A program made the position numbers and the translations under genes. This document shows positions 29,700-40,364 of a DNA stretch of 64,000 nt, one piece after another (the first letter of the stretch is position 1; the number at the start of each line of letters is the position of its first letter). The stretch is from NCBI GenBank assembly GCA_035291905.1, contig DATDRF010000103.1:2805-66804 (forward strand), read 5' to 3'. This stretch comes from Bacteroidota bacterium (GTDB taxonomy: Bacteria; Bacteroidota; Ignavibacteria; UBA10030). The notes under the pieces are model-generated. The model worked only from the letters and a program-made list of their open reading frames with translations. It did no database searches and was not told the origin of the DNA.

Positions 29700-30668
29700 A
29701 TGACTGGGATAAACGCTCAATCGGGATACGCGACTGATCTTTCTATTATCATTGTCAACCATGATACGCGTGAACTGCTGAGCGATTGTCTGCATTCGCT
29801 GAAGATGGAACGCGAATCACGTCCCCTCCAGGTGATTGTTGTCGACAACGGCTCGCATGACGGCAGCCCGGAAATGGTGGAGCATGATTTTCCACATGTG
29901 CGCCTCATACGCAATGAAACCAACGAAGGATTTGCCAAACCGAATAACCAGGGCCTCGCCCTTGCCGAAGGCCGCTACTGCCTGCTCCTTAACAGCGACA
30001 CGATCGTCAGGCCCCATGCATTGAGAACTCTGGTGAACTTCATCGACAATCATCCGGATGTCGGCGCCTGCGGTCCCCGATTGGTGAATCCTGACGGGAC
30101 GCTGCAGCGCTCGTGCAGGAGTTTTCCGTCATTGTGGAGACACTTCTGCGACATGTCCGGGCTCGAGAATCTCTTTCCAAACAGTGTGTTCGGGAATTTT
30201 GAGAAGCGGTTTGATCATGACCGCGATGCCGAGGTCGATCAACCGATGGGTGCAGCCCTTCTTGTGAGATCGGATGTCATCCGGCAGGTTGGTTATCTCG
30301 ACGAGCAATTCAAGATCTACTACAACGAAGTGGACTGGTGCAAAAGGATCAAGGATTCAGGGTGGAAGATCTCTTTCGTTCGGGATGCTGAGATCGTTCA
30401 CTATGGCGGAAAGACGACTGAGATCACCAATCGGTCGATGGAACAATTCGATGAAATGACAAGAAATACTCTGCGATATTATGAAAAGCACTCGGGTTTC
30501 GCCGGAGCTGCGGGCTACAGGATGCTCCTCGTCGCGGGATTCAGCGTTCGGGTAGCGCTGTGGACAATAGTCTCGATGCTGAGACCGAGTCCATCCGTAA
30601 GCTCGCGGCTCATGTTCGCAAGGAAATTCCTTTCGATCGGATTCCGTGGATCGCCGGCGCCCCGATGA
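29700..30668 (+). CDS. Family 2 glycosyltransferase
   Basis: LSIIIVNHDTRELLSDCLHSL...VIVVDNGSHDGS. Confidence 0.8.
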   Translation: MTGINAQSGYATDLSIIIVNHDTRELLSDCLHSLKMERESRPLQVIVVDNGSHDGSPEMVEHDFPHVRLIRNETNEGFAKPNNQGLALAEGRYCLLLNSDTIVRPHALRTLVNFIDNHPDVGACGPRLVNPDGTLQRSCRSFPSLWRHFCDMSGLENLFPNSVFGNFEKRFDHDRDAEVDQPMGAALLVRSDVIRQVGYLDEQFKIYYNEVDWCKRIKDSGWKISFVRDAEIVHYGGKTTEITNRSMEQFDEMTRNTLRYYEKHSGFAGAAGYRMLLVAGFSVRVALWTIVSMLRPSPSVSSRLMFARKFLSIGFRGSPAPR

Positions 30669-31543
30669 CTACTGATATGAAAGTCTCCATCATCGTTGTG
30701 AACTTTAACGGTGCCAGACACACCCTCGCATGTGTCGCATCGATTCGCGCGTTTGCTCCGTCGTGCGAACACGAAATCATTGTCGTCGACAACAAATCAT
30801 CCGATGAGGAGAGGGATGAGCTTGTCCGACATTTGCCTGACTGCACGATCCTCTTCAGTGGAACGAATCTTGGTTTCGGGGGGGCAAATAATCTTGGGGC
30901 GAAGCATGCCCAGGGAGAGTTTCTCTTCTTTCTCAACAATGATACCCTCCTTACCACCGACACCCTCTCCCGGTTGGTCGATGAACTGGACCGGAATCAC
31001 ACCATAGGAATCCTGGGGCCGGCTTTGCAGAACGCTGATGGTACATTTCAGATGTCGTTCGGGCTTTTTCCTTCGCTGATCAGCGAGTGGCAAACGAAAA
31101 GACTGGGAAAGAGATTCAACCATCGAAACATCAATGTGAAAGAGGTTGTCGAGGATTGGATGCACGAATGGATCACCGGCGCGGCATTGATGATTCGCAA
31201 GGAGTGCTTCGATCGTCTTGGCGGATTCGACCCGTCATACTTCATGTACTTCGAAGATGTCGATCTCTGTTATCGGGCGTACCAGTTCGGATGCGGAATA
31301 GGATATGACGCCGATTGTTCCCTCGTTCACCTTGGGGGCATGAGTTATTCTTCGGGCGAATCCGTTGTTCAGTCAGAGTATCGCAGGAGTCAGTTGAGAT
31401 TCTATGATAAGTTTCGCTTTCGGCCAGAAAGACTACTCTTGCGGGTCTATCTTTTCTTAGAAGCTTTGCTCGGTCTTTTCAGGTCGGGAAAGCAGACGGC
31501 TGCGGCCGTCATAGGATTGGTTTTCAAATACCACGGGAAATGA
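30665..31543 (+). CDS. Family 2 glycosyltransferase
   Basis: VSIIVVNFNGARHTLACVASI...IIVVDNKSSDEE; ATGA overlap with the preceding GT2 gene. Confidence 0.8.
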   Translation: MTTDMKVSIIVVNFNGARHTLACVASIRAFAPSCEHEIIVVDNKSSDEERDELVRHLPDCTILFSGTNLGFGGANNLGAKHAQGEFLFFLNNDTLLTTDTLSRLVDELDRNHTIGILGPALQNADGTFQMSFGLFPSLISEWQTKRLGKRFNHRNINVKEVVEDWMHEWITGAALMIRKECFDRLGGFDPSYFMYFEDVDLCYRAYQFGCGIGYDADCSLVHLGGMSYSSGESVVQSEYRRSQLRFYDKFRFRPERLLLRVYLFLEALLGLFRSGKQTAAAVIGLVFKYHGK

Positions 31544-31552
31544 TCTCATCAC

Positions 31553-32659
31553 ATGGCGCAGATTACCATTGATGCCAGAAAATACTTCGACTTTGGCATC
31601 GGAACATATATATGCCGGTTGACAGAAGGCCTTGCCAGGCTGCGATCAAGTCATTCCTTTCGGCTGCTGGTCGCTCCTGGAGATGAAAAGAAAATCGTTC
31701 CTCCGGTGGGATGGGAGCTTGAAGTGGTCCCGTACGGCAAATATTCAGTGAGTGAATTCTTTCTTCTGGGCAAGAGGGTAAAGCCGAAGAAGGGGAAATG
31801 GATTTTCCATTCCCCTCACTATACACTCCCATTCGGACTGAAAGGCCGCTCAGTTGTGACAATCCACGATCTGATTCATGTGCGATTCCCTCAATTCTTC
31901 TCGGCTGCAAAGCGGGTGTACGCTTACGCAATGATCGGGAACGCCATCAGGGAAGCCCGATTTGTGATCACAGATTCGGAATTCACGAGGCGGGATATTT
32001 TGAGGCTGTTCCCTGCCCGCGCAGACAAGGTGATCGCCGTTCATCTTGGCGTCTCCAACAAATTTCGAATTCTCGCGAAGACTGAGAAAGCACACTTCAA
32101 AGCCCGGCATGGCCTCGAACGTCCGTATATCCTCTTCGTGGGAAACGCCAAGCCGCACAAGGGGATTCCAACACTTCTTCATGCATTTGCACAACTCTCA
32201 GCCTCATTCCGGGAGTTTGATTTGGTCTTTGTCGGTGGTCGACCTGATCAGGACGATTACATCCGCGCCATGTTGGAGGCAACTGGAATTGAAAACAGAA
32301 CAAAGATGTTGGGAAACATTTCCGGAGAAGATCTCGTGCGTGCATACAACTGCGCCGAAATGCTCGTCATGCCCTCGTTGTATGAAGGATTTGGACTTCC
32401 CGCGTTGGAGGCGATGGCATGCGGACTCCCTGTGGTGGTTTCGGACGCCGGGTCGCTTCCTGAAATCGTTGGCGATGCAGCTGCGATCTGTCATGCCGGG
32501 AATCCCGACTCTCTCGCGGACTCGATGGAGTCGATCCTGCGCGACCCGCGTCTTCGAGGCGATCTGATCGAGCGCGGAAAGCGTCAGGTCCAAAAATATT
32601 CATGGAAGGAAACTGCCGTGAAAACGCTTGATATCTACGAGAAAGTCTTGGCAGAGTGA
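31553..32659 (+). CDS. Family 4 (GT-B, group 1) glycosyltransferase
   Basis: C-terminal [33 protein letters not shown] signature. Confidence 0.8.
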
Positions 32660-35630: not shown

Positions 35631-36359
35631 ATGCCTGCAAAACCCCTCCGCCTACTTGTTGTTGATGACCAGGATTCATTCCGAATGAGCCTCGAAATCG
35701 CGCTGACAATGTCCGATAAGCACGAGGTGACAATGAGTGACTCCGGTGAAGATGCGATTGAGAAACTGAAGGCCGATCAGTTTGATGTCGTTCTTTTGGA
35801 TTACAAAATGCCGGGTCTCTCGGGCCTTGACGTCCTTGCGTGGATGCACGAGAACAGGGTCGATTCGCCGGTGATCATGCTTACCGCAGCCGGATCGGAA
35901 GAGGTGGCTGTCGAAGCGATGAAGTTGGGTGCCTACGACTACCTTTCAAAAGAGCACATTGAAATCGATCGCCTTCCTCTGGTTATCAACAGCGTCTTTG
36001 AACGGTACCTCTACAGAAGAGAGGTCTTGCGCCGCGAGCGGGAAGAACATCAAATGCGGCAGCAACAGCAGGATCTCGCCTCGCTGCAAATGTTCCAGAA
36101 TACAGTCAGCTCGATCGGACAGTTTGTCAACAACAGCCTCGCCGTACTGTCAAAAAGAATAGCTGAGACCGAAACGGACCTTCTTCAGTACGTGACAAAC
36201 GACGGGCGCAAGTCGTTTCGCGATTCCTTCTCAGCCCTGAAACAGGATTTCGATGTTGCATTTTCAGGCCTCAAGTCCATGTTGGACCTTACGACCCTCG
36301 TTACTCAAAAACTCGAAGGGATCCAGAACCCAAAGAGTACCGACCAGCCGAAGCAGTAA
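35631..36359 (+). CDS. Response regulator: CheY-like receiver plus about 120-aa helical C-terminal domain of unknown type
   Basis: LRLLVVDDQDSFRMSL...VVLLDYKMPGLSGLDVL...VIMLTAAGSEE...KLGAYDYLSKE; no recognisable DNA-binding output domain. Confidence 0.75.
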   Translation: MPAKPLRLLVVDDQDSFRMSLEIALTMSDKHEVTMSDSGEDAIEKLKADQFDVVLLDYKMPGLSGLDVLAWMHENRVDSPVIMLTAAGSEEVAVEAMKLGAYDYLSKEHIEIDRLPLVINSVFERYLYRREVLRREREEHQMRQQQQDLASLQMFQNTVSSIGQFVNNSLAVLSKRIAETETDLLQYVTNDGRKSFRDSFSALKQDFDVAFSGLKSMLDLTTLVTQKLEGIQNPKSTDQPKQ

Positions 36360-36368
36360 TCCGCCGCG

Positions 36369-38057
36369 ATGCCGAATCGGCTTTCCACCCGCCCCGCAAA
36401 GCTCCCTCGGGACGACAATCAACGGTCAAAAAAAGAACTTCTCAAAGAACTGAGAATGCTTCGCCGTCAGTACGTGAACTTGAAAATCCTCAAGTATGAG
36501 CACGACAAAGCTCTTGCAGCGCTGAAGGAAAGCCAGGAGAAGTATCGCAGAATTGTCGAAAGTGCGAGCGACATCATCTACCGAACAGATGAGCGCGGGT
36601 ATTTCACGTACGCCAATCATGCTGCAGTTCGGATCATCGGGTATCCGATCAAGGAGATTTTGGGCAGGAATTACATGGAGCTCCTCCGCCCGGATTATCG
36701 TAAGAAAGCGTATCGTCACTACACGATGCAAACAGAACAGCGGATCCCGAGCACCTACTTCGAATTCCCCGCCGTGTCAAATGAGGGTGAGACTGTTTGG
36801 CTTGGACAGAACGTTCAGCTGATCATGCAAGGGAAGAAGATCGTCGAACTGCAGGCGGTCGCAAGGGATATCACTGAGGTCAAACGCGCGGAGGAAGAAA
36901 GAGCTCGTTTGGAGGTTCAGCTTCGCCAGTCCCAGAAAATGGAATCGATCGGGAGGCTTGCCGGCGGCATAGCTCACGATTTCAACAACATCCTGGGAAT
37001 TATTCTCGCCCATGTCAGTCTCCTGGAGCGTTCCGATCTTCCTGCCGAACAAAAGTCTTCAAGTATCGAAGCCTTGAACAGGACAGTCGGATGAGCCAAG
37101 GGAATGGTCGGTGAACTCCTGACCCTGGCGCGAAAGAGCGAACCATCATTGGAGTATCTGGATGTCGAAAAGGCAATTCGGGAATTTGCCCCGGTCATCG
37201 AGGGGACATTCCCGCGGTCGATTTCATTGTCGATTCGATGTACGCGGGGATTGCCCGGCATCGACGCCGATCCGAACCAATTTCACCAGCTTCTCCTCAA
37301 TCTGTTTGTGAACGCGCGCGATGCCATGCCCAATGGGGGGAAGATCGAGGTGACAACCGAACAATATTTCGGCGAGTCTGTGCGGATGATATTTCGGGAA
37401 GCGGAAGAAACGCCGTACGTCGGGATCAGGGTGAAAGACACGGGCATCGGAATGGACGAGTCCACGAGGGTGCGTATCTTCGAGCCGTTCTTCTCTACAA
37501 AGCCGCAGGGAAGAGGAACGGGCCTTGGGTTGGCTGTGGCATACGGAATCATCAAGAGTCACCGTGGATTTGTCGATGTGGAAAGCAACCCGGGAAAAGG
37601 ATCGACGTTCTTCTTGTTTTTTCCGAAGGGGGTCCGCACTCCAAGGGCGGCTGCGCCCGTGCGGAAACAGGCAACTACCCCCGGTGGGAATGAGACGATT
37701 CTCTTTGTCGAGGATGAAGATCTCCTCCGTGAAGTCATATCGAAGATACTGAAAGAAAAGGGGTACACGGTCCTTGAGGCAGTGGACGGAATAGGGGCGG
37801 TCGATGTATTCATGAAGAATCATAAGCAGATTGACCTTGTGCTTTCCGACTTCGGATTACCGAAACTCGGCGGATGGGAAGCGTGCATTACGATGAAGGA
37901 AATCAAACCTGAGGTGCGGGTCATTCTGGCGAGCGGCTTTATTGAGCCGGCAGTCAGGAATGAAATGGCAATAGCGGGAATCACAACGTTCGTCCAGAAG
38001 CCTTACGTCCCTGACGAGGTTCTGCAAAACATCAGGGAATTGATGAAAAAGGGATGA
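36369..38057 (+). pseudogene. Hybrid sensor histidine kinase (PAS, HisKA, HATPase_c, REC) interrupted by an in-frame TGA at 37092-37094
   Basis: Track ORFs 36369..37094 and 37104..38057 are in the same frame. The stop falls inside the HisKA helix: ...IAHDFNNILGIILAHVSLLERSDLPAEQKSSSIEALNRTVG*AKGMVGELLTLARKS.... Downstream are N/G1/G2 boxes (NARDAMPNGG, DTGIGMDE, GTGLGLAV) and a receiver (ILFVEDEDLLREV...LVLSDFGLP). Confidence 0.6.
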
Positions 38058-38065
38058 CGTTTTCT

Positions 38066-38259
38066 GGTAGTGGGTCAGTTTGATGTAATCTTCAACGCGA
38101 AGGCGCAGAGGTCGCAGCCGACCATTCCGCCATATTGAAATGGTGAATTGATCACTTCGGCAGGCAGGTCTGCGTCCTCCCCGCCTGCCTCAAAGATCTT
38201 ATTGAGGCGGGCAGGCGCGACTCTGCGTTGTAGTCTAGTATTGAAACTGACCCACTACC
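38066..38259. mobile_element. MITE-like nonautonomous element copy A (194 bp): 16-bp perfect terminal inverted repeats, 8-bp target-site duplication CGTTTTCT
   Basis: Left TIR GGTAGTGGGTCAGTTT (38066-38081) is the exact reverse complement of AAACTGACCCACTACC (38244-38259). Direct repeats CGTTTTCT lie at 38058-38065 and 38260-38267. Internal core cacttcggcaggcaggtctgcgtcct and gcgactctgcgttgtagtcta is shared with copy B at 55594-55750. Confidence 0.7.
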
Positions 38260-38419
38260 CGTTTTCTTGAAGTCAGGGTGAAAGTTTTGTATTTTCCATT
38301 ATTGCACGCGCCCGTACCCGCCAACATCACCCACGAACGCTTTTTTTGTGAGTGGCAGTGATTTTTGAGCGTCCCGCCACAAGGCGGGATCTGGACAAGT
38401 GCTTCAAAGAATTTCATAG

Positions 38420-38493
38420 CCCCCGTAGCTCAGATGGATAGAGCAGCGGTTTCCTAAACCGCTTGTCGGACGTTCGAGTCGTCTCGGGGGCAC
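38420..38493 (+). tRNA. tRNA-Arg (anticodon CCT)
   Basis: Acceptor GCCCCCG/CGGGGGC plus discriminator A; D arm GCTCAGATGGATAGAGC; anticodon arm GCGGT-TTCCTAA-ACCGC (CCT); T arm GGACG-TTCGAGT-CGTCT; CCA not encoded. Confidence 0.9.
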
Positions 38494-38505
38494 AATCGGT
38501 TTCAC

Positions 38506-38568
38506 CGTTGTCGGACGTTCTCAGCCGTAGGCTGATCCGCCTTTGGCGGAGAGTCGTCTCGGGGGCAC
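38506..38568 (+). repeat. Direct duplicate of the 3' 34 nt of tRNA-Arg (33/34 identical), interrupted by a 30-bp insert forming two perfect 6-bp hairpins
   Basis: ccgttgtcggacgttc (38506-38521) and gagtcgtctcgggggca (38552-38568) match tRNA positions 38459-38493. The insert 38522-38551 is tcagccgtaggctga plus tccgcctttggcgga. No 5' acceptor strand upstream, so this is not a complete tRNA. Confidence 0.75.
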
Positions 38569-38723
38569 TATCTCCCGGGAATTTTGTGGGATTCGGAGTG
38601 ATTTGGATTTGCTTCCCTCATTGACTTTTTGGGGAAAAAGCGCAACTATGAAAAACATGTTTTCGGCCCCTCCCGCCGCAAGACTTCTCCACTGAGATCT
38701 CACTACTGGAACGGAGAGTTGTT

Positions 38724-40364
38724 GTGGATTCATCCCAAGCACTGAATGCCCTTCACTTCGGAAGAGTAGACGCAGAAACCGATTACCGGCTCAGCCAATG
38801 CTTCGTTGGGACAGAGATGCTTCGTCAGGCCCTGCTTCCCCAACATTCGCTCTTCATCGGCCCCAAGGGATCAGGGAAGAGCGCCCTCTTCAGACTTCTC
38901 TGCGATGACCTCGGTCCATGGAAATCGCTCCTGCCCAAGGGATATGAGATCATCTACAGAATCCCGGCCACCGGACTCCAGAGTGAGAAATACCTCTCGG
39001 GAGTCGACCTTGACGAGTTGAGCCCCCAGACGGCAAACGATTTTCGGTCTTTCTGGCTCCTGTATATCGGCCTCAAGACTGCGACGACCCTGGTGGAAGA
39101 CCAGCGGATGCAGCATCTTGCGTCACATGCAGAGAATAGTCGGATCAGGGAACAATACGCATCGTTGTCGCGTATTGTGAGAACGCTCGGTCTCGTCGAA
39201 GCGGCAAATTCCGTGGAAAAGATCAAACAGAAGATCGACAGTCTGATCGAATCCCCCGAGAATTCTCTGCCAATTTCGGGAGAAGTGGGGAAACGGCTGT
39301 CGGTGAGTTTCCGCAACCGCACCGGGATCGCCATTATCACGCTGCTCGATATCATCGACGGCCTCCTGCAGGAAACAAAATGCCTTTCCTGGATCCTTCT
39401 CGACAAGCTGGATCTCCTCTTCTTTGATGACATCACCAAACTGCGGACATCGATAGCCGGTTTGGTGCAGCTTCTTGTGGAATACAGCGACCGGTTCAAG
39501 AACATCCATTTCAAAGTCTTTCTCCGAAGGGATATTTATAAGCAGCTGCGGATTGTCAACAAATCTCATCTTGTCAGTTACACCCATGACATGAGATGGC
39601 GAGGGCCGTGGCTGATCAAGCTGTTGGTCGCGCGTGCGGTTTCCGACGAGCGTGTGCAAAAACACTGCGAGTCAATTGTGGGTGAACAAGTCGATGTCGG
39701 AAAGGTCATCAACGGCACCGACGAACTTGTCTTGAAGGTGTTTTATTCGATTTTCGAGGAGCGAATGGGGATCATCAAGCGGGAAGGATTCGGCCCGCAC
39801 ACGCACGAGTGGATTCTGAAGAGGCTGGTCGACGGACTTGGAATGAGCTTCCCGAGAGAGATTATCCATCTTGGGAACGTCGCTGTTCAGAGACAACGTG
39901 AGATTATCCGGAGAGAGGGCCTCTCGGAGCGGAGCAAGCTGGTTGGGGGGAGAGCTCTGCGCAAGGCATTCGATGCGGTGTCTGCGTACCGTTGTGACAC
40001 CTACCTCAACTCGGAGTTTCCTCACCTCGCCGGGCACATCGATGCCTTCCGCGGAAAAGAGGTATCGACGTTCGAGCGCGACGAATTGTATCGCGCCTTT
40101 GAAGAGTTACAGCCCAGCGGCGACGACGCAATCAGAGCTGTTCACGACGTAGGGCTCATTACTCCGATAGGAAAGAACGTCGATTCAGCGCTCAAGTTTG
40201 AGGTCCCTCTGCTGTACCGAAGTGGGCTCGGTATTGTTGAACGCAAGCTGAAGAAACGAAATCGGAAAGTTCGTTCGATGGAAGAGAAGAAGCCGCAGCA
40301 ATCGGAATACTCCAAGCCTGAGAAGAACGAACAGGAAGAAATGAACATCCCGCTTTCTCTCTGA
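38724..40364 (+). CDS. Orphan P-loop NTPase of unrecognised family (546 aa) with lysine/glutamate-rich C-terminal tail
   Basis: Walker A FIGPKGSGKSALFRLL (SMC/RecF/ABC-like GxxGSGKS), candidate Walker B WILLDKLDLLFFDD; GTG start with GGAG upstream; tail KKRNRKVRSMEEKKPQQSEYSKPEKNEQEE; no TM segments. Confidence 0.55.
   Translation: MDSSQALNALHFGRVDAETDYRLSQCFVGTEMLRQALLPQHSLFIGPKGSGKSALFRLLCDDLGPWKSLLPKGYEIIYRIPATGLQSEKYLSGVDLDELSPQTANDFRSFWLLYIGLKTATTLVEDQRMQHLASHAENSRIREQYASLSRIVRTLGLVEAANSVEKIKQKIDSLIESPENSLPISGEVGKRLSVSFRNRTGIAIITLLDIIDGLLQETKCLSWILLDKLDLLFFDDITKLRTSIAGLVQLLVEYSDRFKNIHFKVFLRRDIYKQLRIVNKSHLVSYTHDMRWRGPWLIKLLVARAVSDERVQKHCESIVGEQVDVGKVINGTDELVLKVFYSIFEERMGIIKREGFGPHTHEWILKRLVDGLGMSFPREIIHLGNVAVQRQREIIRREGLSERSKLVGGRALRKAFDAVSAYRCDTYLNSEFPHLAGHIDAFRGKEVSTFERDELYRAFEELQPSGDDAIRAVHDVGLITPIGKNVDSALKFEVPLLYRSGLGIVERKLKKRNRKVRSMEEKKPQQSEYSKPEKNEQEEMNIPLSL

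Follow-up and report, generated by a model that had tools for sequence, protein, structure and literature searches.

The 64,000-nt stretch of DNA that was analysed (the window) carries on its forward strand a gene for a hybrid histidine kinase that is interrupted by a stop codon. Two ORFs, 36369..37094 (241 aa) and 37104..38057 (317 aa), lie in the same frame and are separated solely by the TGA at 37092-37094; positions 37086-37109 read GTC GGA TGA GCC AAG GGA ATG GTC. Translation of 36369-38057 yields a single internal stop, at codon 242, followed by the terminal stop. In the fused reading Pfam identifies a PAS domain (residues 57-168), a HisKA domain (195-257), a HATPase_c domain (301-420; 79.9 bits) and a receiver domain (REC, Response_reg; 444-555; 67.2 bits). 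The initial annotation had described one in-frame TGA that splits a PAS/HisKA/HATPase_c/REC kinase, and both the translation and the Pfam matches confirm this description. The whole ancestral gene, 36369..38057, comprises 562 codons, in agreement with the uninterrupted 562-aa alleles found elsewhere.

The HisKA domain spans the two ORFs. It reaches the Pfam threshold in the fused reading only (28.7 bits versus a cut-off of 26.9; profile positions 3-64 of 66). The N-terminal half alone scores 20.1 bits, below this cut-off, and covers no more than profile positions 3-38 of 66, and the C-terminal half alone gave no HisKA match in Pfam. A protein search retrieved an uninterrupted protein of 562 aa that is 99% identical (P0001). 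Since 562-aa proteins with up to 99% identity run across the junction uninterrupted, a chance juxtaposition of ORFs is excluded and the proposal that the two represent one gene was correct. According to Pfam and the structural model described below, the N-terminal fragment contains a coiled coil and the PAS domain, followed by the DHp helix alpha1, on which the phospho-acceptor His203 is located, and by the first half of helix alpha2. In the C-terminal fragment, which starts at the internal Met246, the last third of alpha2 precedes the HATPase_c and receiver domains.

The kinase gene is preceded, at a distance of 9 nt from its start, by a response-regulator (REC) gene on the same strand (35631..36359, 242 aa; Response_reg, 93.5 bits). 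This gene adjoins the kinase in every contig (gene order L004-L017) and is likely its operon partner. The spacing is not unique to this pair, as several co-directional pairs in the window (35631-36369, 30560-31553) show exactly a stop, 9 nt and an ATG, without a Shine-Dalgarno motif. A Shine-Dalgarno core of at least 4 nt was found at only 12 of the 46 long-ORF starts, and initiation in the window is consistent with the motif-poor, coupling-based type described for the Bacteroidota. In the NCBI annotation of the metagenome-assembled genome (MAG) the two halves of the kinase are listed as separate proteins, HLE32121.1 (241 aa, 'PAS domain S-box protein') and HLE32122.1 (317 aa, 'ATP-binding protein'), with no flag for a disrupted gene.

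The position of the stop within the fold was derived from an AlphaFold model (mean pLDDT 77) that was built on an alignment of 20 orthologues (A1). The model places DHp helix alpha1, which carries His203, at residues 169-219 and alpha2 at 226-256, so that codon 242 falls in the middle of alpha2; the stop indeed interrupts one HisKA/DHp helix, as had been suggested. The ancestral gene shows the DHp feature of a hybrid histidine kinase, a HisKA domain with a phospho-acceptor His in the H-box. His203 is encoded by the CAC codon at 36975..36977 (forward strand), in the motif AGGIAHDFNN, is invariant in A1 and aligns with the H-box of 5idj, a CckA-type kinase core and the best match in the PDB (E = 2.3e-42, residues 185-419). 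Arg242, the residue found at the position of the stop in the uninterrupted proteins, is likewise invariant in A1 and aligns with an Arg in 5idj. The HATPase_c and receiver domains, which in the uninterrupted alleles are part of the same polypeptide as the DHp, both lie beyond codon 242 in the window. The lesion hits a 98%-conserved Arg in mid-alpha2 and cuts His203 off from the CA and REC domains, and is in this respect a disabling lesion of the kind by which pseudogenes are recognised.

The order of a PAS domain, a DHp with an AHDFNN H-box, HATPase_c and a C-terminal receiver is shared with the CckA-type kinases (5idj/5idm; NCBIfam NF046020, NF046026), and these two models were also the best NCBIfam matches. 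Their scores, 312.9 and 253.8 bits, stay far from the equivalog cut-off of 1000 bits. The kinase studied here differs in that it lacks a transmembrane region, has one PAS domain only and is truncated in the window; furthermore, its host is affiliated with the Bacteroidota and is not an alphaproteobacterium. We regard the protein as a generic CckA-like cytoplasmic PAS hybrid kinase and not as an orthologue of CckA.

About 20 orthologues of 557-566 aa were identified that share 55-72% identity with the kinase, several of them from MAGs that were named Bacteroidota or Ignavibacteria by their source. A profile scan of the GTDB representative genomes yielded relatives at no more than 57% identity, and an exact-pattern scan of the same genomes gave no match; the affiliation of the host with the Bacteroidota is accordingly based on source names. 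The uninterrupted orthologues read TVGRAKGMV or similar at the junction, with the Arg at the position of the stop. Among the 120 homologues listed, the residue at codon 242 is R in 118, S in one and N in one; in 80 loci from named genomes it is R in 72, H in three, Q in two, S in two and K in one. The initial annotation had proposed orthologues as a comparison, and in none of these 120 proteins or 80 genome loci does the gene end or split at this position; naturally split orthologues, which had been considered, were not encountered in either set.

The ancestral codon is evident from the closest relatives. All 10 uninterrupted 562-aa alleles (L001, L003 and L011-L018), which are 96.7-99.6% identical to the window at the DNA level, carry AGA at codon 242, and 12 sequences carry TGA (the window, L004-L010 and L099-L102). 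A more distant relative, L002, has CGC. With AGA in the close alleles, one A>T transversion at 37092 accounts for the stop, and the CGA to TGA transition that the Arg of the homologues might have suggested is ruled out. All copies can be aligned along the entire 1,689 nt with no indel, a second premature stop is absent from every copy compared, and in each of the 12 TGA copies the two half-ORFs are intact. The site lacks a homopolymer or repeat, which also rules out slipped-strand phase variation.

The initial annotation had offered three causes for the interruption: a nonsense mutation, a sequencing or assembly error, and programmed readthrough. The first of these is the one that the AGA (Arg) in the orthologues supports. 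An error, with A as the true base at 37092 and an intact gene, would at first sight be attractive, as a single-base difference in a MAG is a classic signature of a consensus error and an otherwise identical AGA haplotype exists (L011 compared with L005). The same TGA was however recovered from at least 10 other assemblies, from different samples and made by three pipelines: seven from ENA (MEGAHIT contigs; ERZ27254869, -809, -818, -793, -792, -845 and -867), one from Logan (SRR3990168) and two from JGI (3300025319 and 3300025164). Some of the ENA, Logan and JGI assemblies may share runs, and for this reason we take seven samples as the safe minimum for TGA. The protein clusters show the same picture: the 90%-identity cluster of P0001 contains both 562-aa and 317-aa members, the latter being five different sequences, and five different N-terminal fragments of 241 aa are found in a second cluster. 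As the same TGA recurs across samples, and in addition is found on at least five haplotypes and at a site without homopolymer or repeat, we reject an error as the cause and consider it extremely improbable. The AGA allele was found in ERZ27254844, -745 and -862, in ERZ909595, in JGI 3300025289, Ga0209641 and Ga0209211, and in Logan SRR3989430, SRR3500544, SRR3989297 and SRR3990172, the last of which is the source of P0001. ERZ909595 derives from PRJNA268031, the project on the aquifer at Rifle, Colorado.

The TGA and AGA alleles segregate within one population. All TGA copies belong to a main clade with more than 99% identity, and a second clade at about 97% (L003, L016 and L018) has AGA only. 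Between L005 (TGA) and L011 (AGA), base 37092 is the sole difference in the entire gene. Over 3.95 kb, TGA and AGA contigs differ at 5-18 positions (22-29 for the more divergent L017), a range that overlaps with the 11-18 differences among TGA contigs, and the TGA haplotypes are interspersed among the AGA haplotypes. In a four-gamete test all four combinations were found between the stop site and 8 polymorphic sites, located on both sides of it. The TGA allele may have existed for long enough to spread by recombination to several backgrounds; alternatively, strains that live together may have been merged into mosaic consensus contigs. Since metagenome consensus contigs can be such mosaics, the conclusions on haplotypes and recombination are soft, and we regard a dating of the allele by these means as unreliable. 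What the initial annotation could not show is that the same TGA is polymorphic at intermediate frequency in a natural population and not private to one genome. When changes were polarised with the 97% clade, the derived private mutations amounted to three non-synonymous and one synonymous on the TGA haplotypes, and to none and six, respectively, on the AGA haplotypes (Fisher p = 0.033), a contrast that is based on only 10 mutations, with four of the six AGA-private ones coming from the single contig L017. This hints that the constraint on the TGA haplotypes may be relaxed, the direction expected after inactivation.

The region downstream of the kinase is also variable between these contigs. 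The kinase stop codon is followed immediately by a MITE-like insertion of 194 bp (38066-38259, within 38058-38267). Its terminal inverted repeats, GGTAGTGGGTCAGTTT at 38066-38081 and the reverse complement of this sequence at 38244-38259, are 16 bp long and perfect, and the element is flanked by an 8-bp direct repeat, CGTTTTCT, at 38058-38065 and 38260-38267. The element is present in the window, L005 and L011 and absent from L004, L016 and L018, where a single CGTTTTCT is left; L004 lacks it and yet has a kinase gene that is 100% identical to that of the window. The window holds one copy only. Contigs L006, L012 and L017 diverge or end inside the element, which suggests that it occurs in multiple copies elsewhere in the genome. 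Further downstream lies a tRNA-Arg(CCT) gene (38419-38493), after which the main clade has about 76 bp of additional sequence (region 38419-38570) that is absent from L016 and L018 of the 97% clade. This additional segment repeats the 3' part of the tRNA (TTGTCGGACGTTC ... GAGTCGTCTCGGGGGCAC), much as an att-site duplication does where an integrative element has been. For the product of a 546-aa gene (38724-40364) that follows shortly after the tRNA and is found in all contigs examined, NCBIfam indicates a P-loop ATPase of the Sll1717 family (NF047389, 160 bits versus a cut-off of 75). A further match is with PDC-M28C, a candidate defence protein in PADLOC (E = 8.8e-14), and the sole Pfam match is a weak ORC-CDC6-like one.

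A stop codon in an otherwise continuous frame might still be decoded. Leaky or programmed decoding of the UGA, by near-cognate Trp, selenocysteine or another form of recoding, would yield some full-length kinase, and the allele would then be a hypomorph or a regulated form and not a null. Bacterial translation generally shows some low-level readthrough of UGA, and in every TGA copy the frame stays open for 320 codons past the stop, an arrangement that resembles the in-frame UGA of selenoprotein genes. The resemblance does not extend further. The 76 nt of 37085-37160 fold at -21.2 kcal/mol, which is no better than shuffled sequences (z = -0.23), and neither this fold nor an Rfam scan of the window, which returned tRNAs only, revealed a SECIS-like hairpin 3' of the UGA, in line with the initial annotation, where none had been obvious by eye. 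A tRNA scan of the window found Arg-CCT, Lys-TTT and Leu-GAG, and no tRNA-Sec or suppressor tRNA. Unlike in selenoprotein families, the homologues have Arg at the position of the stop, and Cys or selenocysteine occurs in none of the 120 homologues or 80 genome loci. The sister allele has a plain AGA codon, one mutation away, and a Trp in the place of an Arg that is 98% conserved would in any case probably be harmful to the protein. On these grounds selenocysteine and programmed readthrough, the third of the proposed causes, are rejected as unsupported, and decoding of the UGA in any form, leaky readthrough included, is considered unlikely. A reassignment of TGA or an alternative code is rejected as well. 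In the window TGA serves as a genuine stop more often than any other codon, ending 30 of the 46 long ORFs, and three other TGA-separated same-frame ORF pairs are distinct complete genes according to Pfam (GT2 and methyltransferase, GT2 and GT4, VTT and PAP2). Global recoding is therefore unlikely, as had been argued before.

The two halves might also be translated separately. Reinitiation at the ATG 9 nt past the TGA would produce a PAS-His and a CA-REC fragment that reassemble or act on their own, with signalling kept or altered, and the locus would then represent a nascent gene fission. The geometry of stop, 9 nt and ATG equals that of the natural operon junctions in the window (36359 to 36369 and 31543 to 31553). 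As Shine-Dalgarno motifs are rare at the starts, coupling without such a motif seems normal here, and reinitiation at 37104 is mechanistically plausible. The intactness of both halves in all TGA copies and the commonness of the allele also agree with this scenario, as does the behaviour of EnvZ, for which isolated DHp and CA domains (domain A and domain B) can reportedly complement each other in trans. As in the EnvZ-type trans kinases, one polypeptide would carry the phospho-acceptor His and another the ATP-binding domain. Those kinases are, however, split at the DHp/CA boundary, and the break considered here lies not at a domain boundary but in the middle of alpha2 of the four-helix DHp bundle, where it deletes the nearly invariant Arg and leaves residues 243-245 untranslated. 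Moreover, the ATG at 37104 is not a newly evolved start, but the ancestral codon of an internal Met, Met246, at which 83 of the 120 homologues have Leu. A split at this site is seen neither among the 120 homologous proteins nor among the 80 genome loci, and the excess of private non-synonymous changes on the TGA haplotypes points to a relaxed and not to a maintained constraint. Taken together, a nascent fission appears quite unlikely, and the more specific idea that the TGA allele has been kept because it is not null, with a reinitiated two-piece kinase caught while still polymorphic, is very unlikely. If it were true, it would mean that the DHp four-helix bundle tolerates a break inside alpha2.

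The explanation that we prefer, and consider likely, is that the TGA is a real nonsense allele at intermediate frequency that causes loss of function (null or strongly hypomorphic), i.e. a young segregating pseudogene of an ordinary hybrid kinase. The A>T change has turned the codon of the nearly invariant Arg242 of DHp alpha2 from AGA into a stop; this mutation, its ancestral state, its place in the fold and its recurrence over samples and haplotypes are shown by the data, and the loss of function and the tolerance of the allele are inferred from them. Translation would end after residue 241, leaving the PAS domain, the His-bearing alpha1 and half of alpha2. Because such a fragment lacks the ATP-binding and receiver domains, autophosphorylation and phosphorelay through the kinase would be lost, and the upstream response regulator (35631-36359) would be left without its kinase partner. 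The mutant allele coexists with the intact one in a wild, uncultivated Bacteroidota-affiliated population, in samples that are related to at least one sample from the Rifle, Colorado aquifer. One might object to a loss of function that no TGA copy carries a second disabling mutation; as the copies diverge by less than 0.5%, this absence has almost no power either way. A common allele on multiple backgrounds is not expected of a strongly deleterious null, and thus either the gene would be dispensable or the allele partly active. The allele frequency suggests that the kinase may be dispensable or redundant in its habitat; the related genomes hold many paralogous PAS hybrid kinases.

The event involves no new mechanism. 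As in other young bacterial pseudogenes and segregating nonsense polymorphisms, an otherwise intact gene has been cut short by one substitution that makes a stop codon, alleles with and without the disruption occur side by side in closely related genomes less than 0.5% apart, and there is a hint of relaxed constraint. We see no essential difference from such cases; what stands out here is the intermediate frequency and the occurrence on several backgrounds, both of which may partly reflect mosaic consensus sequences. For annotation, HLE32121.1 and HLE32122.1 should be handled as two parts of a single hybrid kinase gene that has been disrupted, and not as two genes. For the biology of this subsurface population, the allele is a clean and well-polarised nonsense polymorphism at intermediate frequency over many samples, which could serve for strain tracking or for the study of the loss of signalling genes.
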